Part shown: positions 5,161-19,702 of the stretch, piece by piece | Numbering within the stretch: position 1 is the stretch's first letter | How the letters are laid out: each line of letters opens with the position of its first letter | From: Patescibacteria group bacterium | GTDB lineage: Bacteria > Patescibacteriota > Minisyncoccia > Phycocordibacterales > PALSA-1337 | Direction of reading: 5' to 3' | NCBI GenBank assembly: GCA_028864955.1 | Contig: JAGWLE010000001.1 | Location: 1-27,306, forward strand | Length of the DNA stretch: 27,306 bases | Program-made: the position numbers and the translations under genes | The notes under the pieces: generated by a model | Database searches by the model: none | Told to the model about the DNA's origin: nothing | The model's input: only the letters and a program-made list of their open reading frames with translations

Positions 5161-5829
5161 TCATAGCTGTGATTCGCGCAAGGCCTTATTTATATGCACA
5201 TTCATACGCATTCTCTCTGGCGCCAACTCGGCCAAAAAACCCGGCGTAAGCGGCTCCGTCCGGAAGCGCGCCTCGATCAGCCTGTCATTGCCAATGTAAC
5301 CGAGAGCATCAAGGATGCGCAGAACGATGACGGATTCCAGCGCTTTGAATTGATCAGCCGTAAGCGCGCGTTCTCTCTGGAGAAAATCGCGCGCCGATTC
5401 GATGGCCATGAATAGCCGCGGCTGTGATTCCTCGCCGTGAAGCAGCCGCCGCAAGAGCACGGCGATTCGCCCGATCAATTCCTGTGCCATTCTACTTTCA
5501 ATTCTATATTCGCCATTCTGTATTCTTTCATTTTTGTCTTCTTCTATTACTTTATTCTCGACTCCTCTATTCTCGACTGTTCCTATACCCTCGCTCTTGC
5601 TATCCTCCGCATGTGTCAGCCGCCAAAATTCTTTTCCGCGTACAAAGGAAAACACGCCGAAGGCGTACTCCTGCGTATGATAACGCAGCTTTGATTTTTC
5701 GAGGCGTATGCCCTGCGCCGTGGCGAGCACCAGACCAAAATCGCGCGTGAATATCGAAAGCATCTTGCCCGCTTCGCCGTATGGATGCGAATCGATGACG
5801 AATCCGGGAGTTGTGTGGATATGATGCAT
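5161..5829 (-). CDS. recO: DNA repair protein RecO (OB-fold plus helical part, no Cys4 zinc finger) with a low-complexity insertion
   Basis: N-terminal T.GFVI...YGEAGK.LSIFTRDFGLVLA.AQGIR..KSKLR matches the RecO OB-fold. Lies near glyQS, a common linkage. Confidence 0.85.
   Translation of the reverse strand: MHHIHTTPGFVIDSHPYGEAGKMLSIFTRDFGLVLATAQGIRLEKSKLRYHTQEYAFGVFSFVRGKEFWRLTHAEDSKSEGIGTVENRGVENKVIEEDKNERIQNGEYRIESRMAQELIGRIAVLLRRLLHGEESQPRLFMAIESARDFLQRERALTADQFKALESVIVLRILDALGYIGNDRLIEARFRTEPLTPGFLAELAPERMRMNVHINKALRESQL
5490..5603 (-). repeat. Decayed AGAATAN-type heptamer insertion in recO
   Basis: ATTC recurs at 7-nt spacing (5501, 5508, 5515, 5522). Direct repeat TATTCTCGACT at 5553-5563 and 5568-5578. 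Encodes SKSEGIGTVENRGVENKVIEEDKNERIQNGEYRIES. Confidence 0.6.
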
Positions 5830-5883: not shown

Positions 5884-8800
5884 TTAGGCTGCGAGCCCTA
5901 GCGTCGCCCCCTCTTCGATAGACGTCAGATTCGTCGCCTTTTTTATTTCTGCCTCAAATTTATTCACAAGTGACTTCAATTCGGCCGGAACGACAAGCAC
6001 GGCTATGTCACTAACCTTGAGGCCTTTCTCCTTGCGCAGATCCTGAATCTTGCGCAAAAGCTCGCGAAGATCACCTTCTTCCTTGAGAGCCGCTGAAATG
6101 TCCGTATCAAGCTTGTCTTCGGTTGCGCCAAATACGATCTCCTTGACATTAAGCTCATCTTTGATGATTTCGCCAAGACTGATCACGGCTGAAGTGGTTG
6201 AGAATGAAGCGAGCGGCTGGCGCACATTGATCTTGGCCGCATTGCGCGCTTCGAGTCCTTTGGAGGAAATCTGCCGCGCGATTTCCATTTCTTTGAGAAG
6301 TTTTTCGTCGACGGCACCGGCTGCCGGCCACTCTGTCAGGTGCACAGACTCCAGCTCTCCGCCGACTTCCTTGTAGGCGTATTCGGAAAAGAACGGCGTA
6401 AATGGCGCCATGACTTTGGCGAGAGTAAGGAGAATCCAACGTGTTGTATTCAGAGCCGACTGCTTGTCCGCTTCATCATCTCCCTTGAATCGGTCGCGCG
6501 AACGGCGCAGATACCACTGCGATAGGTCTGCCACAAAATCGCGAATGGCGCGCGTCGGCTCGAGGAAAACGTAGGCATCCATGCCTTTCGTGACGGCTTC
6601 GATCAGCTGATTCATTCGCGAAACGATCCAGCGATCAAGCACATTCTGCGATTCTGGTTGCACCGTGTCACTTGTGACTTTTGACTTCTGACTTTTGACT
6701 TTTGACTTCTGACTTGGCTCTTGTGACTTGTGACTTTCAACCTTCGGCCTATGTTCATAAATCTTGTAGAAACTTGTCACATTCAATGCGAGATTGAAGA
6801 CTTTCTTGACGACTTCATCAACGGTCTTCTCGTCAAAATTCTTTGATTCTCCCGGCTGATTGACACTGTACATCCAGAAGCGCAGCGCATCAGCACCATA
6901 CTTGTCCATCATCTCGAATGGATTGACGACGTTGCCCAACGACTTGGACATCTTTTTGCCATCGGCGTCGAGGATGTGGCCGAGGCAGATGACATTCTTG
7001 TACGCCTTGCCCATACCCATGAGCGTGCCGACCGCGTGCAAGGTGTAAAACCAGCCGCGTGTCTGGTCGATGGCTTCAGAGATAAAGTCCGCCGGATATG
7101 CCAGTTTCTGCTCATGACCGAAGATCTTGCTGAGCAATCCGTGTGACTCTTGATTTTCGACTTTCGACTCAAATGGATAGTGATCCTGCGCAAATGGCAT
7201 GGCGCCGCTGTCGAACCAGACATCCATGACTTCCTTGACCCGCTTCATGTCGCCGCCGCAGCTACAGGCGAGCTTCGTGTCATCGATATACGGCCGATGG
7301 AGATCGAGCTCATATTCCGGGTTATGCGGCACGATCCTGAAGTCGACCTTCTTGTAATGGCCTTTCTGAATATAGTTGTTGAGTTCATAGGCGATGGTTT
7401 GCTCCCTATCCCAGCCGTGCGCGGCTGCGATAAGCATCATCGTCGGACTGCCGTGTGAAACGATCAGGATCTTCTTGCCAGAATACTTTGATTCGATGTC
7501 ATAGAGGAAATCACCCATGCGCTTCTTCACCTCGGCGTATGTTTCAACGCCGACCGGCGATTTGCTAAATCGGTAGATGTCCATGGGAAATTCCTTCATG
7601 AATCCCTCGAGAGGCTTGCCGTTCCATTTGCCGAGAGCCATCTCCTGCAGACGATCGTCTGTTATAAATTGTTCATCAGCAAGCCCGAACATTTTCTGTA
7701 CGATACGAGCCGATTCCTGCGTGCGCATAAACGGCGAAGCGAAGATGAGATCTATGCCTTCACCTTTGAGCGGCGCCAGATGTTCGGCGATCTTTTGTTT
7801 GCCGACTTCAGTCAGATGATTCGAGACGTTTGCATCGGAATTGAGCAGGCCTTTCGCATTGAATTCGGCCTCACCGTGTCGCATGATCCAGTACTCATTC
7901 TTGGGCTTGCGCGCGATCTCTTCGACGGAACCGACAACACGGCGCACGCCGCACTTTTCGCACAACCACACAGGCAACGGCGTACCCCAATAGCGCTCTC
8001 GTGAAATGGCCCAATCCTTGACCTCGCGCAACCACTCGCCAAAGCGGCCTTCTTTGATATGTTCAGGCTCCCAGTGGATGCCTTCGTTTTCCCTGACCAG
8101 CTTGTCGCGAAGTTTGGACATGGCGATGTACCAGCTGTCGCGAGCGAAATAGATGAGCGGCGTATGACAGCGCCAACAGAACGGATACGTATGCTCATAT
8201 TTTTCCTTGTAGAACAGGAGTCCACGATACGCCAGATCTTTGATGATCTCCACCGCCACCGCCTCGTCATCCTTCACGAACTTCCCCGCCAAGAATCCAG
8301 CTTCTTTCTTGAATGTGCCGTCGTCGTTCACCAGGTGATACTTTGGCAAGCCGACGCGCGTGCCGAGCTCGAAGTCGTCCTGACCATACATCGGCGCCAT
8401 ATGCACGATGCCCGTGCCATCTTCTGTGGTCACGAAATCACCGGCATAGACTTTGAATGCATTCGTGAGTTTTTCTTTTTCTGCACCACTCACATTGTCT
8501 TTCAAGAATGGGTAGAGAGGCTCGTATTCGGTACCAATCAGGTCTTTGCCCTTGAATGTTTCAACAATTGATGGATTCTTGAAATGACCTCTAACAGATT
8601 CAAATCTGTCTTTAGCAAGAATATAGAATTGAGACATCGTCTCAGAAACATTAGGTGTCAATCCATTTAACTCCTCCTTTACAGGCTCACCAATAAACAA
8701 ATCTTTAATTTTGACATACTCAATCTTTTCATTGACGGCCAAACCGACATTTCCAGGCAATGTCCACGGCGTCGTCGTCCACGCAAGGAGATACGTGTCG

Positions 8801-9492
8801 CCAGGTTTTTCACTTTCGACTTTTGACTTTTGGCTTTTGACTTTTAACTTCACATACACCGACAAATCCTTGACCGTCTCATACCCCTGTGCCAATTCAT
8901 GCGACGACAACGCCGTACCGCAGCGCGGGCACCAGGGCACGACTTTATAGTCCTTATAGAGGAGCTTCTCGTGATCGACGTGCTTGACGATGTTCCAGAC
9001 TGATTCGATGAAGTTTGGCTTATATGTGACATAGGCATTCTTCAAATCAACCCAAAATGCCATACGTTCGGTGAGTTCTTCCCATTCGCGTACATACGTC
9101 CAAACAATCTCTTTGCACTTGGAATTAAACTCCTCGATACCGTATGCGTCAATTTCTTTTTTTGACCTAATGCCAAGCTCCTTCTCTGCCTGGAGTTCGA
9201 CGGGTAATCCGTGAGTATCCCAGCCTCCGCGACGACGTACGCGATAGCCGCGCATGGTCTTATAGCGCGGAATAGCATCCTTGAAGGCGCGCGATTCAAA
9301 ATGACCGATATGCGGCCGCCCATTAGCGCCTGGCGGTCCCTCGTAAAAAACAAACTCGCCCTTTGGCGCGGGCTTATTCAGGGACTTTTCAAAAATGCCC
9401 TGCTCTTTCCAAAATGCAAGAATAGACTCCTCACGTTCTGCATGAGGAGATTTTGGATGTTCTGTCTTTTTCGAGTCAGCCTGATCTGCCAT
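5884..9492 (-). CDS. ileS: Isoleucine--tRNA ligase, type 2 (IleRS2), with inserted histidine phosphatase domain
   Basis: GPPGANGRPHIGH, GWDTHGLPVE, WTTTPWTLPGN, GTGIVHMAP, DWAISRERYWGTP, VMDVWFDSG, EAIDQTRGWFY and KMSKS. C-terminal EG.LRELLRKIQDLRKEKGL.VSD is characteristic of type 2. Confidence 0.97.
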   Translation of the reverse strand: MADQADSKKTEHPKSPHAEREESILAFWKEQGIFEKSLNKPAPKGEFVFYEGPPGANGRPHIGHFESRAFKDAIPRYKTMRGYRVRRRGGWDTHGLPVELQAEKELGIRSKKEIDAYGIEEFNSKCKEIVWTYVREWEELTERMAFWVDLKNAYVTYKPNFIESVWNIVKHVDHEKLLYKDYKVVPWCPRCGTALSSHELAQGYETVKDLSVYVKLKVKSQKSKVESEKPGDTYLLAWTTTPWTLPGNVGLAVNEKIEYVKIKDLFIGEPVKEELNGLTPNVSETMSQFYILAKDRFESVRGHFKNPSIVETFKGKDLIGTEYEPLYPFLKDNVSGAEKEKLTNAFKVYAGDFVTTEDGTGIVHMAPMYGQDDFELGTRVGLPKYHLVNDDGTFKKEAGFLAGKFVKDDEAVAVEIIKDLAYRGLLFYKEKYEHTYPFCWRCHTPLIYFARDSWYIAMSKLRDKLVRENEGIHWEPEHIKEGRFGEWLREVKDWAISRERYWGTPLPVWLCEKCGVRRVVGSVEEIARKPKNEYWIMRHGEAEFNAKGLLNSDANVSNHLTEVGKQKIAEHLAPLKGEGIDLIFASPFMRTQESARIVQKMFGLADEQFITDDRLQEMALGKWNGKPLEGFMKEFPMDIYRFSKSPVGVETYAEVKKRMGDFLYDIESKYSGKKILIVSHGSPTMMLIAAAHGWDREQTIAYELNNYIQKGHYKKVDFRIVPHNPEYELDLHRPYIDDTKLACSCGGDMKRVKEVMDVWFDSGAMPFAQDHYPFESKVENQESHGLLSKIFGHEQKLAYPADFISEAIDQTRGWFYTLHAVGTLMGMGKAYKNVICLGHILDADGKKMSKSLGNVVNPFEMMDKYGADALRFWMYSVNQPGESKNFDEKTVDEVVKKVFNLALNVTSFYKIYEHRPKVESHKSQEPSQKSKVKSQKSKVTSDTVQPESQNVLDRWIVSRMNQLIEAVTKGMDAYVFLEPTRAIRDFVADLSQWYLRRSRDRFKGDDEADKQSALNTTRWILLTLAKVMAPFTPFFSEYAYKEVGGELESVHLTEWPAAGAVDEKLLKEMEIARQISSKGLEARNAAKINVRQPLASFSTTSAVISLGEIIKDELNVKEIVFGATEDKLDTDISAALKEEGDLRELLRKIQDLRKEKGLKVSDIAVLVVPAELKSLVNKFEAEIKKATNLTSIEEGATLGLAA
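6668..6737. repeat. In-frame heptamer tandem array (TGACTTt/c/g x10 on plus strand) inside ileS
   Basis: tcacttg tgacttt tgacttc tgacttt tgacttt tgacttc tgacttg gctcttg tgacttg tgacttt; encodes KVESHKSQEPSQKSKVKSQKSKVTSD. Confidence 0.95.
7144..7171. repeat. Short in-frame heptamer array (4 units) inside ileS
   Basis: tgactct tgatttt cgacttt cgactca; encodes ESKVENQESH. Confidence 0.7.
7340..7900 (-). other. Histidine phosphatase (phosphoglycerate-mutase-like) domain inserted in IleRS (approximate boundaries)
   Basis: YWIMRHGEAEFN (RHG), ASPFMRTQESA, DDRLQEMALGKWNG, ETYAEVKKR and ILIVSHGS. Lies between IleRS segments CEKC..GSVEEI and DLHRPYID..CSCGG. Confidence 0.92.
8810..8851. repeat. In-frame heptamer tandem array (6 units, 42 nt) inside ileS
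   Basis: tcacttt cgacttt tgacttt tggcttt tgacttt taacttc; encodes KLKVKSQKSKVESE. Confidence 0.92.
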
Positions 9493-11649: not shown

Positions 11650-12882
11650 CTACTTTGCCTGGCGCAAAATCCTGTCGATCATGCCGGCGATCCTTTCCAT
11701 GTCTTTTTCCTTGCCACCCCTGGTCGTCTCCGCCGCCGTGCCCAAACGAATACCTGAAGGATCGGCAGGAGGTCGCGTATCGAACGGAATAGCGTTCTTA
11801 TTGACAATGATGCCCTTTTGCTCGAGCCGCCGGCTGGCCTCGGCGCCGGCTATGCCGCCAACCCCCCGATCATTATTGCGGCCGTCGTTCCAGGTATCGA
11901 CAAGCACGAGATGCGAATCGGTGCCGCCGGAGATCAGCCGCCAACCGCGGTCTTGAAGCGTTTCCGCCAGCGCTTTTGCATTCTTCACGACTTGAGCGGC
12001 GTACTTTTTGAAAGTTGGGCTGGCCGCTTCACGGAGCGCCACCGCCACCGCCGCAATCTGATTTTCGTGCGGACCGCCCTGCAGACCGGGAAAAACCGCT
12101 TTGTCGATCTTCTTCCATAGCTCTCGCGAGTCTTTGCGTGAAAATATGAGCGCCGAGCGCGGCCCCCGCAGAGTCTTGTGCGTCGTGGTAGTCACGACAT
12201 CGGCATAATCAAAAGGCGACGGATACGCCCCACCGGCCACCAAGCCGGCGATATGAGACATGTCGACCATCATCAGCGACTCGGCTGACGTCGCCACTTC
12301 CTTGCACCTCTGCCAGTCGATGACGCGCGGGTAGGCCGTGTAGCCAAAAACGATGATCGTCGGCCGCTCTTTCATGGCTTGTTCGCGCAAAATATCGTAG
12401 TTCAACATCTCTGTCGTTTGATCGAGGCCATAGGGCACTTGCGTCCAGAATTTGCCCGAGGCCGAGACTTTTTGACCGTGCGTCAGATGTCCGCCCTGAT
12501 CGAGCGCCATGCCCATGATCTTGCCGGCAGGCGTCGGCCGACCATCGGCCGCGGCGCCGGCGCGTGGCACCAGCGCCATATACACGGCCGTATTCGCCGG
12601 CGAGCCGGAGAGCGGCTGTACATTGACATGCCACTCGGCCGGATTGAGCCCGAAGAGTTTGAGGGCGCGCACCTGACAGAGCTTCTCGAGCTTATCAACA
12701 ATCTGATTGCCGCCATAATAGCGCTTATCGGGATAGCCTTCGGAATATTTGTTGGTAAATTCGGAGCCTAAAGCTTCCAGCACATCGCTGGATACGTAAT
12801 TTTCCGAAGCAATCAGATTGACGACTTTTTTCTGGCGCCTCTTTTCAGCTTCGATAAGTTTTTTGACTTGAATATCTTTCAT
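11650..12882 (-). CDS. glyA: Serine hydroxymethyltransferase
   Basis: LIASENY, NKYSEGYP.KRYYGG, VQPLSGSPAN, GGHLTHG, PLP-lysine motif TTTTHKTLRGPR, FPGLQGGPH and SGIRLGT. Confidence 0.98.
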   Translation of the reverse strand: MKDIQVKKLIEAEKRRQKKVVNLIASENYVSSDVLEALGSEFTNKYSEGYPDKRYYGGNQIVDKLEKLCQVRALKLFGLNPAEWHVNVQPLSGSPANTAVYMALVPRAGAAADGRPTPAGKIMGMALDQGGHLTHGQKVSASGKFWTQVPYGLDQTTEMLNYDILREQAMKERPTIIVFGYTAYPRVIDWQRCKEVATSAESLMMVDMSHIAGLVAGGAYPSPFDYADVVTTTTHKTLRGPRSALIFSRKDSRELWKKIDKAVFPGLQGGPHENQIAAVAVALREAASPTFKKYAAQVVKNAKALAETLQDRGWRLISGGTDSHLVLVDTWNDGRNNDRGVGGIAGAEASRRLEQKGIIVNKNAIPFDTRPPADPSGIRLGTAAETTRGGKEKDMERIAGMIDRILRQAK

Positions 12883-12915
12883 GGTAGCGAAATGTTTACC
12901 GAATGCGTGTCTTAA

Positions 12916-13899
12916 TTATTTCCTGTCCTTCTCATCGAAGCCGCCAGCCACCGTCATTTTTGCCTTGAGGACCGGATGAGGATCATAATCCTCGAGTTTG
13001 ACCATGTCTGGCCGGAAGCTGGCCAAGTCTTTGACCTCATCGGACAAGACGAGCCGGGGAAACGGCTTGGGAATACGCCTGATCTGTTCCCTGACCTGCG
13101 GAATATGATCTTCGTATATGTGCGCGTCGCCAAGCGTGTGGATGAATTCGCCTGGTTCGTAACCGCAGATCTTGGCCACGATCATGGTTAGTGCCGCGTA
13201 ACTGGCGATATTGAAGGGCACGCCCAGGAACATGTCGCAGGAACGCTGATACAAGAGGCAGGATAATTTGTTGCCGGCAACGTTGAAATGGAAGAGGATA
13301 TGGCAGAGTGGGAACGACAATGCCTCACCCGGCTTGGCCATGGCATAGAGGTATTGCGGATTCCAGGCGGACAAGATCGCGTGTTTGCGTTCCGGGAAAT
13401 TCTTGAGCGTATCCACGACCCAGGCCAACTGGTCAATCTTGCGGCCGTCGGCGGCCGGCCAGGCACGCCACTGTTCGCCGTAAATGCGCGGCAATTCGCC
13501 GTGAGCCGCGGCAAAATCGGTGTCTGTGCGGATCTTTTCCACGAATTCCTCGAGAGTGAGCGGCGGCAATTCGCCTGTATCAGCCTTCTTTTTATAGATC
13601 TTGTAGGGATAATCGTTCCAAATAGGCACCTTATGGTCGACGAGATATTTGATATTGGTCTGACCTGACATGAACCAGTAGAGTTCATGCATGATGCTGT
13701 TCCATGGCACTTTTTTGGTGGTGAGCAGCGGGAATCCTTGGGAAAGATCAAATCTCATCTGTCTGCCAAAGACGCTGGTCAGTCCGGTGCCGGTATTATG
13801 ATCATGCTTCAAAACGCCGTGATCGAGAATATCCCGCAGAAGATCAAGGTACTGGTACTCCGGATGCGAACGGCCCGTGTTATTGTGTGTCTTGTTCAT
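12916..13899 (-). CDS. thyA: Thymidylate synthase (ThyA family), divergent phosphate-binding residues
   Basis: FGRQMRFDLSQGFPLLTTKK, HELYWF, YGEQWR, SAWNP, catalytic PLCH, YQRSCDMFLGVPFNIASY and GDAHIY. Confidence 0.95.
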   Translation of the reverse strand: MNKTHNNTGRSHPEYQYLDLLRDILDHGVLKHDHNTGTGLTSVFGRQMRFDLSQGFPLLTTKKVPWNSIMHELYWFMSGQTNIKYLVDHKVPIWNDYPYKIYKKKADTGELPPLTLEEFVEKIRTDTDFAAAHGELPRIYGEQWRAWPAADGRKIDQLAWVVDTLKNFPERKHAILSAWNPQYLYAMAKPGEALSFPLCHILFHFNVAGNKLSCLLYQRSCDMFLGVPFNIASYAALTMIVAKICGYEPGEFIHTLGDAHIYEDHIPQVREQIRRIPKPFPRLVLSDEVKDLASFRPDMVKLEDYDPHPVLKAKMTVAGGFDEKDRK

Positions 13900-13964
13900 G
13901 AAGATAACGAGTTAGCTGATACGTATCCAAACACTCCGTGCGATGAGATCAGGCCATGGCGGGA

Positions 13965-14567
13965 TTATTTCTTGCGGCTGGATGACTTATGGGACATTTT
14001 GACGGCGCCGGTACGTCTGGTTTCCTCTTCCTTTGGATCGACGAAATGCTGCCAGTCGCGATCATGGTAGCGGCCAGTGACCTTGTAGTCTTTTTGCGGC
14101 ACATCTGATAATTCGGAAAAAAGAATCTGCCCGATGCGCATGCCCGGCCGCAAAATGATGGGAATATGGTTGAGATTGGCGAGCTCGAACGTGATATTCA
14201 AAAAATGGCCCGGATTGATGATGCCGGCAGTGTTGTGAATAATGAGGCCCAGCCGGGCCAAACTGCTCTTGCCGGACAGATGCACGAGGTATTTATCTGA
14301 GCCGAAATAGTCGATAGATGTGCCGAGCACGCTGACTCCCGGATGAAGGACAAACCTGCCGCCTTCGGGAATGATGATCTCCTTGGTCTCCGGAAAAATC
14401 TTCATAACCGGATCTATAGCGGTCGTGGATTCGGTATTGCTGATGATGAATTTGTGACCAAGGAGGATATCGTAACTGGCCGGTTGTAGACGATCCTCGT
14501 CGAATGAGTGGATGACGATGTCACCTTTTTCCAAAGCTTTCTTAATATCGCGATCGACGAGATACAT
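13965..14567 (-). CDS. dcd: dCTP deaminase
   Basis: LQPASYDILLG, FVLHPG, GKSSLARLGLIIHNTAG, TFELAN (catalytic Glu), PGMRIGQ and Y...GRY. Confidence 0.93.
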   Translation of the reverse strand: MYLVDRDIKKALEKGDIVIHSFDEDRLQPASYDILLGHKFIISNTESTTAIDPVMKIFPETKEIIIPEGGRFVLHPGVSVLGTSIDYFGSDKYLVHLSGKSSLARLGLIIHNTAGIINPGHFLNITFELANLNHIPIILRPGMRIGQILFSELSDVPQKDYKVTGRYHDRDWQHFVDPKEEETRRTGAVKMSHKSSSRKK

Positions 14568-14583
14568 GGCGGTGATGATGCTG

Positions 14584-15264
14584 TTATTCTATAGTAAACG
14601 TCTTCTCCGTTCCATAGTACTCCTGCCAATGGGAATTGTAATGGGCGAACATCCTTTCCAGGCGATCTTGCGGCAATTCAGACAGGCCAAGAACATTCAT
14701 GACGTTCGCGAGTTCCCGCCTGATATCATCCAGTCTGCTCTGATCCTCGGTCACGCGCTCGAATTCCGCCAGATATCCGTAACCGGCATTGCGGTCGATG
14801 CAGACGTGCATGTCCTCGGCCGCATACTCCTGCCGCTCGCGCGACCACTTGGCTTGATATGTGCAACCGGCGTCGAGCAACACCGTATCGAGTTCGTCCA
14901 GTGTTTTTTCAACGGGCACCTCGAATTCCATGCGCTTGACGCCGTTTGAACTGGTATCGTCCCCGACAGAGGCCTTCATAACCAACAGAACCTGGTTGTC
15001 GGTCTGGCGAGACCGGAGCGAAATCTTGGTGCCGCGAGTCACGATCTCTTCACACCGAGATCTCTGATCGGCCGGAATAATGTCCGCCAAGGCTCGGCGT
15101 AGAGGCTCCAGATCCGCCGGCAAATTGAAATAATGATTGAGCTGCCGGCCCGCGCTGATCATCTTGATGCCGGGAAATCGCTTGGAGAGATCGCGCTTGA
15201 GCTTCTCGGCGTTCTTCTTGGAGCCAAGCAGCGTCTTGATTTCAACCTCATACGAGTGCTTCAT
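14584..15264 (-). CDS. CYTH / triphosphate tunnel metalloenzyme family protein
   Basis: ExExK motif (YEVEIK), QLNHYF, LRSR, KRMEFE, KWSRERQEY, ID...GYGYLAEFE. Start moved to the ATG at 15264 (AAAGGA upstream) because the longer ORF overlaps the divergent folA. Confidence 0.85.
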   Translation of the reverse strand: MKHSYEVEIKTLLGSKKNAEKLKRDLSKRFPGIKMISAGRQLNHYFNLPADLEPLRRALADIIPADQRSRCEEIVTRGTKISLRSRQTDNQVLLVMKASVGDDTSSNGVKRMEFEVPVEKTLDELDTVLLDAGCTYQAKWSRERQEYAAEDMHVCIDRNAGYGYLAEFERVTEDQSRLDDIRRELANVMNVLGLSELPQDRLERMFAHYNSHWQEYYGTEKTFTIE

Positions 15265-15289
15265 GAAGGTATCCTTTACAGGTCTATGA

Positions 15290-15317
15290 AGTATAATGTT
15301 CCTACAGTCGTTTACAA
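15290..15317 (-). promoter_or_regulatory. Promoter TTGTAA-N16-TATACT for CYTH-dcd-thyA-glyA, overlapping a plus-strand TATAAT facing folA
   Basis: Minus -35 at 15312-15317 and -10 at 15290-15295; plus-strand TATAAT at 15292-15297. Confidence 0.6.
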
Positions 15318-15342
15318 GGATGACAGATAACTGATTTCTATT

Positions 15343-15885
15343 ATGAAATGTTTCATTATCGCCGCCCTGACCGCCGACGGCTATATCGCCAAGGATGAGC
15401 GCCATCCGGCGTTCTGGAGCAGTAAAGAAGACAAGAAGCGTTTTGTGGAACTGACCAAGCGAGCCGGCGTCGTGGTCATGGGCTCGACGACATTCGCTAC
15501 CCTGCCGCGACCGCTCAAGGAACGCGTCAACATCGTCTATTCGCGGACAAAGACGTTTGAGGGCGCGGAGTCGACAGAGAAGGATCCAAAGGCGCTCCTG
15601 GCGGATCTGGAAATCCGCGGTTTCAAGGAAGTCGCTATCTGCGGCGGCGCCCAGGTATACACCATGTTCATGAAGGCCGGCGTTGTCGACCAGCTGTACC
15701 TCACCGTCGAGCCGCTGGTATTCGGCAGCGGCGTGCGATTATTCAATGACGACATGCTTTACCAACTCAAACTCATGAATTCGAGCGTCACCGAGAATGG
15801 CTCGGTCATGCTCGAATACGCGGTGCATCACGGACCGCAAAAAACCGAGTCAAGCGGCGTGCTCGTCGAGGAGAGAACTATATAG
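15343..15885 (+). CDS. folA: Dihydrofolate reductase
   Basis: IAALTADGYIA, W...ED...F, VVMGSTTF..LPRPL..RVNIVYSR, ICGGAQVY..F and LYLTV. Confidence 0.93.
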   Translation: MKCFIIAALTADGYIAKDERHPAFWSSKEDKKRFVELTKRAGVVVMGSTTFATLPRPLKERVNIVYSRTKTFEGAESTEKDPKALLADLEIRGFKEVAICGGAQVYTMFMKAGVVDQLYLTVEPLVFGSGVRLFNDDMLYQLKLMNSSVTENGSVMLEYAVHHGPQKTESSGVLVEERTI

Positions 15886-15895
15886 ATACGACGGA

Positions 15896-16318
15896 TTATT
15901 TCACGTCGACACCCATCTGTCTGGCCGTGCCGGCAATGATGCGTGAGGCGGCATCGAGGTCGTTGGCATTGAGATCTTGCATCTTCTTTTCGGCGATCTC
16001 TCTGATCTGAGCCTTGGTGATCGTGCCGACTTTCGAGGTATTCGGCTTGCCGGAACCCTTCTCTTTCTTGATAGCCTTGAGAATCAGGCTCGAAGCCGGC
16101 GGCGTCTTGAGTTTGAAATCATACGTACGGTCCTCGTAGACGGAGATGACGACCGGGATCATGTCGCCGATCTTGTCCTTGGTGGCGTCATTGAACTTCT
16201 TGGTGAAGTCGCCGATATTGACGCCGGCCTGGCCCAATGTCGGGCCCAAAGGCGGCGCCGGCGTAGCTTTGCCCGCAGGAGCGATGACTTTTACTTTTTT
16301 GACGACTTTCTTAGCCAT
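15896..16318 (-). CDS. rplK: 50S ribosomal protein uL11
   Basis: [49 protein letters not shown] and IAGTARQMG. Confidence 0.99.
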
Positions 16319-16335
16319 GGAATTGATGTGTGGTG

Positions 16336-16364
16336 ATAGTACTGTATGTTGGACTAATTATCAA
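16336..16364 (-). promoter_or_regulatory. Internal sigma70-type promoter for rplK, TTGATA-N17-TACTAT
   Basis: -35 at 16359-16364 and -10 at 16336-16341, in the nusG-rplK gap. Confidence 0.6.
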
Positions 16365-16373
16365 GAAAGAAGT

Positions 16374-16919
16374 CTATACTTTCTTGACCTGCAAGAAATC
16401 GAGCTCGACGGGAGTTTCGCGGCCGAACATGGAGACGAGAACCTTGATCTTACCGCGCTGAGTATCGACTTCAGCGACCTTGCCCTCGAAATCCTTGAAT
16501 GGGCCGTCGGAAACCTTGATCAGGTCACCTGCCGAAAGATTGATAGCGTGTTCGGTCTCGCCCTTCTGCATGCGGGCAAAGAGGGATTCGACCTCTTTTT
16601 GATCCAGCGGCACCGGCGAGACGCCGGCACCGACAAAACCGGTCACGCGCGGCGTGTTACGCACCACGTACCAGCTGTCATCTGTCACGATCATGTCGAC
16701 AAGCACGTAACCGGGGTAGATTTTCTCCTCTTCCTCGACGCGCTTGCCCCCTTTGACCTTGATCTTCTTCTCGGTCGGCACGATAACCGCGAAGATCTTA
16801 TCCTCCATGCCCAAGGATTCGATGCGCTGTTTCAAATTGCGCGCGACCGCGTTTTCATAACCCGCGTACGTATGTATCGCGTACCAATTGCGCTCGCCGG
16901 TTGTATGCTGTTTGGTCAT
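16374..16919 (-). CDS. nusG: Transcription termination/antitermination factor NusG
   Basis: WYAIHTYAGYE..V, KIYPGYVLVDM, VRNTPRVTGFVG, KOW motif GPFKDFEG.V.EV and VSMFGRETPVEL. Start set at ATG 16919; the longer ORF begins inside the repeat hairpin. Confidence 0.98.
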   Translation of the reverse strand: MTKQHTTGERNWYAIHTYAGYENAVARNLKQRIESLGMEDKIFAVIVPTEKKIKVKGGKRVEEEEKIYPGYVLVDMIVTDDSWYVVRNTPRVTGFVGAGVSPVPLDQKEVESLFARMQKGETEHAINLSAGDLIKVSDGPFKDFEGKVAEVDTQRGKIKVLVSMFGRETPVELDFLQVKKV

Positions 16920-16928
16920 GGATGGTGG

Positions 16929-16977
16929 CAAGTTGCAGGTCACAAGTCAGACGTTGTCACTTGTTACCTGCGACGTG
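16929..16977. repeat. Inverted heptamer array forming a hairpin between secE and nusG
   Basis: caagttg caggtca caagtca gacgttg tcacttg ttacctg cgacgtg. Arms GCAGGTCACAAGT (16935-16947) and ACTTGTTACCTGC (16959-16971) pair at 12 of 13 positions. Confidence 0.85.
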
Positions 16978-16980
16978 CTA

Positions 16981-17160
16981 CTAAAATAGAAGAGTCAGAA
17001 GTTTAGAGAAGACAAAATCAGAAAGTCCGAGGAGGGCGGCCGTAGCCAGCGACACCAGGATGACCAACGTCGTAAAGCGCACCGTCTGTTCGCGCGACGG
17101 CCAATTGACGTGTGTAAGTTCGGTCCTCGTCTCTTTGATATAATCGCTAACTGAAGCCAT
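16981..17160 (-). CDS. secE: Preprotein translocase subunit SecE
   Basis: Below the ORF-track cutoff. Manual translation: MASVSDYIKETRTELTHVNWPSREQTVRFTTLVILVSLATAALLGLSDFVFSKLLTLLF (59 aa), with the EL..V.WP motif and one TM helix. SD AAAGGA; upstream of nusG. Confidence 0.97.
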   Translation of the reverse strand: MASVSDYIKETRTELTHVNWPSREQTVRFTTLVILVSLATAALLGLSDFVFSKLLTLLF

Positions 17161-17365: not shown

Positions 17366-17902
17366 CTAGTGGAACTCATACCTTTCGGCATACGTGTTCG
17401 GCCGGCAGGCCGGCGTTGACGCCCTGTGGAAATAGTGTCTCTGCAGAGAGTCGGCCACGGCCAAGGCATAGCCCCGCGGACTGAAATTCTCCCGTAGAAA
17501 ATACATGTATTCCGTGACACACTGGTTGCGATCGGCGACCAGCTCGATTGGATTCTCGGCCGGCGAGAAAACATGATAGAGGAAAACAGCAAGCGGCAGA
17601 CGAATGCCAGCCGACAGCCGCGATGGTCGCACGTCCAGGCGCAAACGGGGGTGGAAACGATCAACGTCGGCGATAACCAAGGCTACCGCCGTGCCATCGT
17701 TGACCCATTCATGGCCGGCCTGGCCAGAAATCAAGCCGGGATACGGTTCAACAGCTTCTATCGTGAAGCCGCTGATCGACATGAGCCTCCCGTCATCGCT
17801 GCCGGAAAGCTCGCGTTGAAGTATGCCGAGAAATTCACCGATCTGCCCGGCTCCGTTACCTGCCGTCGTAGCGCCGGCATATACATATAGTTTTTTTCTC
17901 AT
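17366..17902 (-). CDS. Hypothetical protein (178 aa)
   Basis: ORF bracketed by its own promoter and terminator. No recognisable family; faint nucleoside-deoxyribosyltransferase-like topology only. Confidence 0.6.
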   Translation of the reverse strand: MRKKLYVYAGATTAGNGAGQIGEFLGILQRELSGSDDGRLMSISGFTIEAVEPYPGLISGQAGHEWVNDGTAVALVIADVDRFHPRLRLDVRPSRLSAGIRLPLAVFLYHVFSPAENPIELVADRNQCVTEYMYFLRENFSPRGYALAVADSLQRHYFHRASTPACRPNTYAERYEFH

Positions 17903-18841: not shown

Positions 18842-19702
18842 CTAGAGATACAAATCCAGCAAATTCTCGAAAAGAGACACGACCGTCATGGGTCCAACGC
18901 CGCCAGGCACCGGCGTGATGGCAGCCACGATGTTCCTGACTGCCTCAAAATCAACATCACCGACAAGTTTCCTGCCCTCGATCTCGTCATCAAGCTTGTC
19001 GCCTAAAACGGTATTTATGCCGACATCGATGATGGTTTGTCCGGTCCGAACATGCTCTTTGCCAACCAAGCCCGGCTTGCCGGCGGCAGCGATAACGATA
19101 TCCGCGGCGGCAGTGATCCTCGACAAATCGGGCGTCTGACTATGACAGACTGTGACTGTGGCATTCTCGGCGAGGCACATCGCCATGATCGGCTTGCCGA
19201 CGAGCATGGAGCGGCCGATGACGGCGGCTTTTGCGCCGGAGAGCGGTATGCCATTTTGAGCGAGCAGCGTACGGATGCCGCGGGCCGTCGCCGGCATGAT
19301 GGCTCCCCTTTTTCCCTCGAGCCATTCCTTGACGCGTCTCGAGGTCAAAGCATCGACATCTTTCCGCGGATCGATCGCCTCGATCATCGCCGTCCGATCG
19401 ATGCCCGGCGGCAACGGCAATTGCACGATCAGCCCGTGAATAGCTTCATCGGCATTGCATGCCTCGATCACCGTCCGGAGGTCGGCTTGGCTGATCGTCT
19501 CGCTGACGTGGATATGCTTCACAGCCACGCCTATCTTGGCCGCGCATGATTTCTTGGCCTTGATGAAAGCAGTCGAATCAGGCCGATCGCCGGCCTGGAT
19601 GATCGCCAGCACTGGCGGTCGCGAAAGCGCCTTGACGCGTTCAGCCAACGTCGGCATGAGCGCGTCGCGGAGAGCGCGACCATCGATAATATGCGCATTC
19701 AT
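18842..19702 (-). CDS. folD: Bifunctional methylenetetrahydrofolate dehydrogenase/cyclohydrolase
   Basis: IIDGRAL, HGLIVQLPLP, IDPRKDVD, PATARGI..LL, VIGRSMLVGKP, VIDVG-like IIDVGIN, LVGDVDF and ITPVPGGVGPMTV. Confidence 0.96.
   Translation of the reverse strand: MNAHIIDGRALRDALMPTLAERVKALSRPPVLAIIQAGDRPDSTAFIKAKKSCAAKIGVAVKHIHVSETISQADLRTVIEACNADEAIHGLIVQLPLPPGIDRTAMIEAIDPRKDVDALTSRRVKEWLEGKRGAIMPATARGIRTLLAQNGIPLSGAKAAVIGRSMLVGKPIMAMCLAENATVTVCHSQTPDLSRITAAADIVIAAAGKPGLVGKEHVRTGQTIIDVGINTVLGDKLDDEIEGRKLVGDVDFEAVRNIVAAITPVPGGVGPMTVVSLFENLLDLYL

Follow-up and report, generated by a model that had tools for sequence, protein, structure and literature searches.

A compact subfamily of CYTH-superfamily enzymes recurs beside thymidylate synthase genes in three contexts, namely in no fewer than 36 Patescibacteria loci, in seven or more phage-like contigs, and in a second Paceibacteria family that combines CYTH with a long Dcd, a fusion ThyA, and Tmk. 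One such locus is the operon at positions 11650–15885 of the 27,306-nucleotide contig JAGWLE010000001.1 (assembly GCA_028864955.1, Patescibacteria group bacterium), the whole of which is referred to here as the window. The operon encodes CYTH, a dCTP deaminase-family protein with Asn in place of the dUTPase-type Asp (termed Dcd(N)), a ThyA with an altered phosphate pocket (the variant ThyA), and GlyA. It is proposed to be the housekeeping dCTP-to-thymidylate route of a Paceibacteria lineage devoid of the dUTPase Dut, in which CYTH would act as a nonhomologous dUTP (or dCTP) pyrophosphatase. Judged from sequence and gene context, this reading is given about an even chance of being correct. The arrangement is not a product of chance, because 120 of 121 homologs share the ThyA substitutions, and about 36 of 44 related loci have the same gene order.

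The window is contig C23 of an assembly of 643 kb in 97 contigs that is 87% complete, and its nearest homologs are found in Paceibacteria/Parcubacteria metagenome-assembled genomes named Taylorbacteria, Zambryskibacteria, and Nomurabacteria. Gene identities derive from Pfam and NCBIfam profile searches of the window proteins. On the minus strand, the order is CYTH, dcd, thyA, and glyA, with spacers of 16, 65, and 33 bp. CYTH (14584–15264, 226 aa), a triphosphate tunnel metalloenzyme (TTM), scores 42.9 bits against PF01928 (cutoff 23.2) and heads the operon. It is followed by Dcd(N) (13965–14567, 200 aa; TIGR02274, 136 bits versus a cutoff of 92.8), the variant ThyA (12916–13899, 327 aa; PF00303, 336 bits with a cutoff of 24.3, and TIGR03284, 372 bits with a cutoff of 108), a folate-dependent thymidylate synthase, and, last in the run, GlyA (11650–12882, 410 aa; PF00464, 503 bits, and NF000586, 498 bits), a serine hydroxymethyltransferase (SHMT). 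The open reading frame (ORF) listed by the program for CYTH reaches 15405 and overlaps folA. Its start is corrected here to the Met at 15264, because the ExExK motif (YEVEIK) follows directly and the resulting 226 aa is the length of all homologs.

A divergent intergenic region of 78 bp separates this start from the gene for a 180-aa DHFR-like reductase of the DHFR_1/RibD_C type (15343–15885, plus strand), and a candidate promoter upstream of CYTH, TTGTAA-N16-TATACT, lies at 15290–15317 on the minus strand as a consensus pattern match. The DHFR-like protein scores 67 bits against PF00186 (DHFR_1, cutoff 25), spanning profile positions 4–114 of 159, and 66 bits against PF01872 (RibD_C). Since the two scores are about equal and every NCBIfam DHFR equivalog cutoff exceeds its score, dihydrofolate reductase activity is a probable rather than an assigned function. 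The gene for FolD, the methylene-tetrahydrofolate (THF) dehydrogenase/cyclohydrolase (PF02882 and PF00763), lies about 3 kb from the operon (18842–19702, minus strand). The initial annotation had described a CYTH-dcd-thyA-glyA run headed by a triphosphate tunnel enzyme, with a divergent folA and with folD about 3 kb away, and the profile matches bear out this map in all but the CYTH start.

CYTH matches PF01928 only and has no homology to the dUTPase families, whether the trimeric Dut (PF00692/TIGR00576) or the dimeric and MazG-type enzymes; it is proposed to work like a dUTPase without belonging to a dUTPase family. The tunnel fold is predicted by AlphaFold2 (AF2) with a predicted local distance difference test score of 85, and the best Foldseek matches of the model are SaTTM (7ns9) and YpAC-IV (2fjt), both at a probability of 1.0 and with E-values of about 1e-11 to 1e-12. 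By this comparison of structure models, the enzyme sits nearest the nucleotide-binding CyaB/SaTTM branch. It has in common with CyaB-like TTMs (Yersinia pestis 2fjt and 3n0y, Sulfolobus SaTTM 7ns9) the eight-stranded tunnel, the ExExK motif, and the basic and acidic tunnel residues. However, CYTH is only 16–18% identical to them, harbors extra helices and an aromatic/His-rich C-terminal extension, and occurs in a genomic context of thymidylate synthesis, not signaling. The extension is helical and specific to the subfamily, with the conserved motif RMFxHYNxHWxEYYGT. CYTH falls below the cutoff of the cyaB equivalog (TIGR00318; 38.5 versus 57.95 bits), and the database labels “adenylate cyclase class IV” on its homologs are automatic. 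Class IV cyclases of this structural branch attack the α phosphate, cleaving the α–β bond with release of pyrophosphate, and by analogy such chemistry is plausible for CYTH. In a profile search of 1.84 billion representatives, the subfamily emerges as compact, with 371 clusters, of which 120 fall below 1e-30. Domains of the generic CYTH type are widespread in the class (72 of 201 genomes; the class sample comprises 200 genomes, and counts are given over 201), but strong scores for this subfamily are limited to three sampled genomes of one genus and the window's own genome.

In Dcd(N), the deaminase Ser, Arg, and Glu are kept, as GKSSLARLG and FELAN align with the corresponding motifs of the E. 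coli and Mycobacterium tuberculosis enzymes, and are shared with the bifunctional Dcd:Dut proteins (M. tuberculosis Rv0321, 2qxx; M. jannaschii DCD-DUT). Where relatives have IDPG[FW], the window protein has INPGH within the motif HNTAGIINPGH, so that Asn replaces the conserved Asp expected of a dUMP-forming Dcd:Dut (codon 14214–14216) and is followed by His. The initial annotation had pointed to this Asn, and Asn-Pro-Gly-His is present in every readable short Dcd that adjoins a CYTH of this subfamily. In M. tuberculosis Dut, the D83N substitution leaves substrate binding intact but reduces the efficiency to 0.0002 of wild type, rendering the enzyme practically inactive (PMC5519681). Because Asn occupies the water-activating position, Dcd(N) is probably unable to proceed to dUMP. 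The closest solved structure is nevertheless that of the bifunctional M. tuberculosis enzyme (2qxx, E 4e-31), as compared with E 1e-19 for the monofunctional E. coli Dcd.

The variant ThyA is 43–50% identical to ordinary bacterial enzymes and matches thymidylate synthase structures in the PDB at E 3e-87. Its fold is that of canonical ThyA (E. coli; the long-form Lactobacillus casei 1lca and Enterococcus faecalis 3uwl), with a long-form insert that aligns with the L. casei-type one, and the AF2 model has a predicted template modeling score of 0.85, with low confidence confined to an insert and the C-terminal tail. Because the AF2 models of CYTH and ThyA were built without ligands and without the dimer, they confirm the folds yet do not decide the substrates. 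Residues are numbered here by E. coli ThyA (sequence from NC_000913). Relative to the canonical enzyme, the substitutions are R21H, W83Y, S125R, R126K, and R127H; the phosphate loop reads P-E-R-K-H-A in place of P-D-S-R-R-I, the R21 loop is K-H-D-H-N with one residue inserted, and seven residues are added ahead of the catalytic Cys. In contrast, C146, H147, R166, S167, D169, N177, E58, W80, Y94, H207, and Y209 are retained. The four-arginine clamp of ThyA (R21, R126′, R127′, and R166) is usually treated as invariant, and here only R166 of the four remains, accompanied by the new R125. The initial annotation was correct that R21, R126, and R127 are replaced, but its statement that most of the phosphate clamp has been lost is an overstatement, since S125R leaves the loop basic (R-K-H); by alignment, the basic residues are shifted and altered, not simply lost.

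The C-terminus of the window ThyA departs equally from the canonical end. It is lengthened by at least 10 residues, namely AGGF and then a basic tail, so that the canonical terminal carboxylate, which closes the active site, is displaced; across the variant clade, the extension starts with AGGF and spans 10–52 residues. R21 and W83 contact the C-terminal carboxylate upon enzyme closure, and their replacement alongside the added tail gives the impression of a single, concerted remodeling of the lid. Of 121 database homologs, 120 or all 121 share each of these pocket states, and in them the catalytic and uracil-site residues (C146, R166-S167, D169, N177, E58, Y94, H207, and Y209) are likewise kept (120–121 of 121). 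Among 35 canonical comparison ThyAs, R21, R126, R127, R166, S167, and N177 are present in all and W83 in 34, while 34 lack the extension. In the ThyA tree, the variant enzymes group together as a monophyletic supergroup, and the stem leading to it is very long. The protein is thus predicted to be a true thymidylate synthase with a rebuilt phosphate loop and C-terminal lid. The linked DHFR-like, SHMT, and FolD genes argue for dihydrofolate production by this ThyA, i.e., for reductive methylation.

A weakened clamp alone does not imply a new substrate. The VAAP-clade ThyA of Vibrio parahaemolyticus has a natural R127′ to Gly replacement, yet still functions as a dUMP-dependent synthase, albeit with a higher Km (PMC6005164). 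In that clade, however, one Arg is changed, whereas the variant ThyA combines three changed arginines with a register shift, a new tail, and a CYTH partner.

Relatives of the operon comprise 44 genome loci with a ThyA at least 57% identical to that of the window. The order CYTH-dcd-thyA-glyA, usually followed by argS and with the DHFR-like gene divergent, is found in about 36 of these, such that the CYTH-dcd-thyA linkage noted in the window is a conserved one. FolD is encoded at a similar distance in related loci, and a further metagenome contig of the same arrangement has FolC beside the DHFR gene. Several loci contain tmk. In L043 and L044, DHFR diverges from CYTH-dcd(N)-thyA-tmk-glyA, and the ThyA pocket is T/A-Y-H-N; L014, a member of the core clade, has CYTH-dcd-thyA-orf-tmk-glyA, and in L023 and L032, Tmk is encoded beside the operon. 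The ThyA pockets of L014, L023, and L032 (H-Y-K-H) are identical to that of the window. In L093, a close relative, a gene for a Ham1/RdgB-type noncanonical NTP pyrophosphatase (5171–5770) lies between rplK and folC, beside the divergent DHFR/CYTH pair; it is absent at the corresponding position in the window.

Other loci lack CYTH and have different partners beside thyA. L046, of a sister clade, has the order tmk-tmk-DCD-like-thyA-NUDIX-orf-DHFR, in which NUDIX adjoins thyA and the ThyA pocket is R-Y-K-N. L035 and L041 encode an H-Y-K-H ThyA without CYTH, the neighbors being a canonical-type Dcd and a second paralog of the dUTPase superfamily. This paralog, termed DCD-like2 (179–180 aa; L035:7499–8038, L041:5410–5952, and L046:5407–5946), stands beside the variant ThyA where CYTH is absent. 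It has V-[PAH]-P-G-Y without the IDPG Asp, lacks the deaminase Glu, and ends in YRGQWQGGR. DCD-like2 was rejected as an obvious Dut, as it lacks the Asp and scores 82 bits against its best-matching model, the archaeal-type dUTPase PRK02253, for which the cutoff is 130.

In genus g13, which belongs to another Paceibacteria family, a CYTH that is 42% identical over its full length heads two operon types. One (L095) encodes CYTH, a long Dcd, a three-domain archaeal-type ThyA, Tmk, and a ThyX-like protein of 451 aa, while the other (L094) encodes CYTH, a dCMP-deaminase-type enzyme, and a three-domain ThyA. The L095 ThyA retains the canonical S-R-R. The three-domain ThyAs (467–482 aa; L094:4044–5447, minus strand; L095:5659–7107, plus strand; L096:576–1979, minus strand), all with the same CYTH subfamily upstream, consist of an MtrA-like N-terminal domain, an archaeal-type thymidylate synthase core, and a PterinBD-DUF4346 C-terminal domain. 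Dut matches were found in none of the four g13 genomes that carry a CYTH operon and are 90–100% complete.

Distant members of the CYTH subfamily adjoin or neighbor ThyA in phage-like contigs. CYTH is immediately upstream of ThyA in L098 (CYTH-ThyA-DHFR), L103 (PolA, class II ribonucleotide reductase (RNR), cobalamin adenosyltransferase, CYTH, and ThyA), and L107, and is one to a few genes away in L099 and L100 (CYTH-HD-ThyA), in L101 and L102 (CYTH-orf-orf-ThyA, with ThyA split by a GIY-YIG endonuclease), and in L106; L106 and L107 are IMG/VR contigs of 111 and 127 kb. In L097, one small ORF separates CYTH from a ThyA homolog truncated at the contig end. L104 encodes a distant CYTH member beside PolA and Fpg and has no ThyA in the vicinity. 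In phages, the position occupied by CYTH is usually that of a dUTPase. The phage ThyAs beside CYTH are 28–39% identical to the window ThyA, and all those compared have the loop P-[DEF]-R-K-S-[YF]; V-G-G-[YF] ends every one whose C-terminus is present. They were considered as members of the variant clade, but the tree places them in a separate group, one of three deep groups (phage, the variant of the candidate phyla radiation (CPR), and canonical) whose branching order it does not settle; it fits a shared ancestry of the R-K-[HS] loop and GG[FY] tail as well as it fits their convergent origin. Two phage-context genes are themselves interrupted: the L101 ThyA (6596–8782) by a GIY-YIG/NUMOD3 homing endonuclease gene, and a 651-aa ORF of L106 (285–2240) by an intein holding a LAGLIDADG domain, with a NUDIX gene directly ahead of thyA in the latter.

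The inventory of dUMP sources in the host genome is short. Apart from dcd itself, no dUTPase-family match was found at the operon or in the 643-kb assembly, in line with the lack of dut reported by the initial annotation, and searches of the same assembly found no MazG, Tdk, ThyX, or dCMP deaminase and no Tmk, Cmk, Gmk, or PyrH. Of the kinases considered by the initial annotation, Ndk is present (C62:4313–4834), whereas Tmk and Tdk, like Dut, were not found in this 87% complete genome. Adk (C62:5724–6260) is the only nucleoside monophosphate (NMP) kinase candidate in a Walker-A screen. A weak tmk match at the same coordinates was rejected, being adenylate kinase in a secY-adk-map cluster (ADK 79.7 versus Tmk 25.6 bits). 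At this completeness each single absence is soft, yet the pattern repeats across relatives. Searches for RNR of class I/II and of class III were negative as well; since about half of the clade genomes carry a class I/II RNR large subunit, this absence may be an assembly gap.

Clear Dut was detected in only one of about 40 core genomes (L034, on short contigs), while L037 has an intermediate dUTPase-family match of 51.8 bits in a 241-aa frame. With the exception of L034, no searched genome that holds this CYTH subfamily has a clear Dut. In contrast, both Paceibacterota genomes with a canonical ThyA among the related loci carry Dut, as do 16 of the 33 class genomes with a canonical ThyA, often in dut-tmk-thyA clusters. 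About 7 of the 40 core genomes yielded Tmk, as compared with 147 of 201 class genomes (above cutoff) and 32 of the 33 with a canonical ThyA. Cmk and Gmk were not found in nearly all of the 46 related genomes searched, two with a canonical ThyA included. Where Tmk is missing from a core genome, a broad-specificity Adk possibly phosphorylates dTMP; more generally, these organisms may meet their NMP-kinase needs through such an Adk, or may rely on uptake or phosphorolysis at the nucleoside diphosphate level.

In the proposed route, Dcd(N) would deaminate dCTP to dUTP and stop there. CYTH would then hydrolyze dUTP, and possibly dCTP, at the α–β bond to yield dUMP and pyrophosphate, thereby covering both jobs of a dUTPase, dUMP supply and dUTP sanitizing. 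ThyA would methylate dUMP with methylene-THF from GlyA and FolD, and the divergent DHFR-like enzyme would recycle dihydrofolate. Whereas the gene identities, residues, conservation, and distributions are observed, what CYTH, Dcd(N), and the variant ThyA consume and release is inferred, with the role of CYTH deduced from operon logic and complementary distribution. The initial annotation had listed three routes, in which CYTH acts as a dUTP-to-dUMP pyrophosphatase, CYTH removes only the γ phosphate and ThyA uses dUDP, or ThyA uses dUTP directly. Comparative genomics, through the operons with Tmk and the gene distribution, favors the first and disfavors the other two. The operons hold a deaminase, ThyA, Tmk, DHFR, and SHMT, so that CYTH is the only gene without an assigned step; the step without a gene is the conversion of dUTP (or dCTP) to the monophosphate, which makes CYTH the candidate. 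The same conclusion is favored by the pairing of the CYTH subfamily with the canonical Arg-Arg ThyA of L095, by the occurrence of the H-Y-K-H ThyA without CYTH beside a dUTPase-superfamily paralog, and by the near absence of clear Dut from CYTH genomes, L034 excepted, as against its presence in 16 of the 33 canonical-ThyA genomes. The partners of CYTH include deaminases and ThyAs of three kinds each, and CYTH alternates with NUDIX or the dUTPase-superfamily paralog; as read from gene content, this pattern is a classical signature of nonorthologous displacement. The phage ThyA-linked CYTHs that lack a Dcd, together with the three ThyA types, argue for a direct metabolic link of CYTH to thymidylate synthase.

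Several observations weigh against a CYTH dUTPase analogue. Most characterized TTM hydrolases cut the γ phosphate and not the α–β bond. A dUMP-based route needs Tmk, yet searches did not find it in the window's own genome, and about 33 of the 40 core genomes likewise gave no Tmk. The strict conservation of H21, R125-K126-H127, and the GGF tail is unexplained by this route, as are the R-K-S loop and GG[YF] tail common to the phage ThyAs beside CYTH. Moreover, the lineages compared are few and related, and the distribution counts are not independent samples.

The missing Tmk and the conserved ThyA states lend some appeal to a scheme that bypasses the monophosphate, in which CYTH would cut the γ phosphate of dUTP to give dUDP and phosphate, the variant ThyA would make dTDP, and Ndk, present in the own genome, would complete dTTP. 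Such a scheme requires neither Dut nor Tmk, would employ the commonest TTM chemistry, and is attractive for an organism that seemingly avoids nucleoside monophosphates altogether. Tmk-positive genomes are scattered on the ThyA tree, suggesting repeated loss in a class where nearly all canonical-ThyA genomes keep Tmk. The pocket charge is rearranged, not lost, with three consecutive basic residues, two His (H19/H21), and a basic tail; divergent phage ThyAs that accompany this CYTH share the loop and tail motifs, and the stem branch of the supergroup is very long. However, the operons of L043, L044, and L014 include tmk, and those of L023 and L032 have it as a neighbor; in L014, L023, and L032, the ThyA pocket is identical to that of the window. 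The missing Tmk was rejected as specific support for a diphosphate-level route, since Cmk, Gmk, and PyrH are equally missing. CYTH also pairs with an Arg-Arg ThyA plus Tmk in L095, the variant ThyA exists without CYTH, and Ndk would turn dUDP back into dUTP. No ThyA is known to us to act on dUDP. The diphosphate scheme is therefore considered quite unlikely, and its most specific form, in which ThyA binds dUDP and CYTH is a dUTP γ-phosphatase within a phage-shared module that bypasses Dut and Tmk in an organism with Adk as its only NMP kinase, a little more so. Direct methylation of dUTP to dTTP, with CYTH a mere sanitizer or unrelated, would also account for the lack of Dut and Tmk, and L035 has a canonical Dcd beside the variant ThyA in a genome in which no CYTH, Dut, or Tmk was found. 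It appears barely credible, as it assigns no role to the conserved CYTH, NUDIX, or DCD-like partner and has no known precedent; Tmk is present in several operons, a dimer interface with much more space would be required for a triphosphate, and no changes are seen in R166, S167, or the remainder of the dUMP site.

A different objection is that Dcd(N) may still be bifunctional, or that another unrecognized hydrolase makes dUMP, whereupon CYTH would have some other job in DNA precursor metabolism (tripolyphosphate or NTP clearing, dCTPase activity, or regulation) and the variant ThyA would be an ordinary enzyme with drifted residues. The closeness of Dcd(N) to the bifunctional M. tuberculosis enzyme (E 4e-31 versus 1e-19) fits this view, as do the L104 CYTH, which adjoins PolA and Fpg rather than ThyA, and the spread of generic CYTH domains in the class; the dCMP-deaminase-type partner in L094 would suit a CYTH that converts dCTP to dCMP. 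In contrast, the Asp-to-Asn change nearly abolishes Dut hydrolysis and the Asn is fixed wherever CYTH is present, CYTH is directly beside ThyA in phage contigs without Dcd, and this CYTH subfamily is conserved with thymidylate synthase across three ThyA types. On balance, this explanation is unlikely, although it merits more weight than the diphosphate scheme.

The operon resembles the E. coli-type dCTP route (Dcd, Dut, ThyA, FolA, Tmk, and Ndk) in dCTP deamination, thymidylate synthase, DHFR, and SHMT, but the window lineage has no Dut, mostly lacks Tmk, and has CYTH in the Dut slot. The dut-tmk-thyA clusters of other Paceibacteria are similar in their clustering near thyA. Phage contigs with CYTH-ThyA-DHFR, class II RNR, and cobalamin adenosyltransferase recall the T4 module (gp56 dCTPase/dUTPase, Td, and Frd), whereas the window module is chromosomal and serves as housekeeping in a bacterium. 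A comparison of jumbo phages notes CYTH and MazG triphosphatases and suggests that a dUTPase-like role is possible for the former (PMC7824862), and a survey of dut-less prokaryotes raises the possibility of unrecognized dUTP hydrolases (PMC5122711). Full-text literature searches found no paper on this CYTH subfamily or on a CYTH/TTM acting on dUTP, no ThyA using dUDP or dUTP, and no description of a Patescibacteria thymidylate module, in agreement with the initial annotation, which knew of no such route. What is new is the pairing of the CYTH subfamily with thymidylate synthase in bacteria and phages. The mechanism behind it is most likely a new enzyme within a known pathway.

Few pathways are as conserved, or as much targeted by drugs, as thymidylate synthesis, and here a whole bacterial clade and a set of phages have a ThyA in which three clamp arginines are replaced and the C-terminus is displaced, systematically paired with CYTH in genomes without dUTPase. 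If CYTH is a dUTPase analogue, a large orphan branch of the CYTH superfamily would gain a substrate and a physiological role, and dUTP control would have a third, nonhomologous solution; if the variant ThyA works on dUDP, dTTP would be reached by a new route. In either case, the reconstructed metabolism of Patescibacteria, at present seemingly unable to make dUMP or phosphorylate dTMP, would be improved.

Elsewhere in the window, a 178-aa ORF without a Pfam match lies between nusG and a SIMPL gene (17366–17902, minus strand). A 286-aa ORF (16146–17006, plus strand) opposite rplK and nusG is probably not a gene, because it overlaps these on the other strand and has no family match. Isoleucyl-tRNA synthetase (5884–9492, minus strand, 1202 aa) harbors a complete His_Phos_1 domain (112 bits, residues 535–706) inside its catalytic domain, and the same architecture, a synthetase with a histidine-phosphatase insert, is found in the relative L093.

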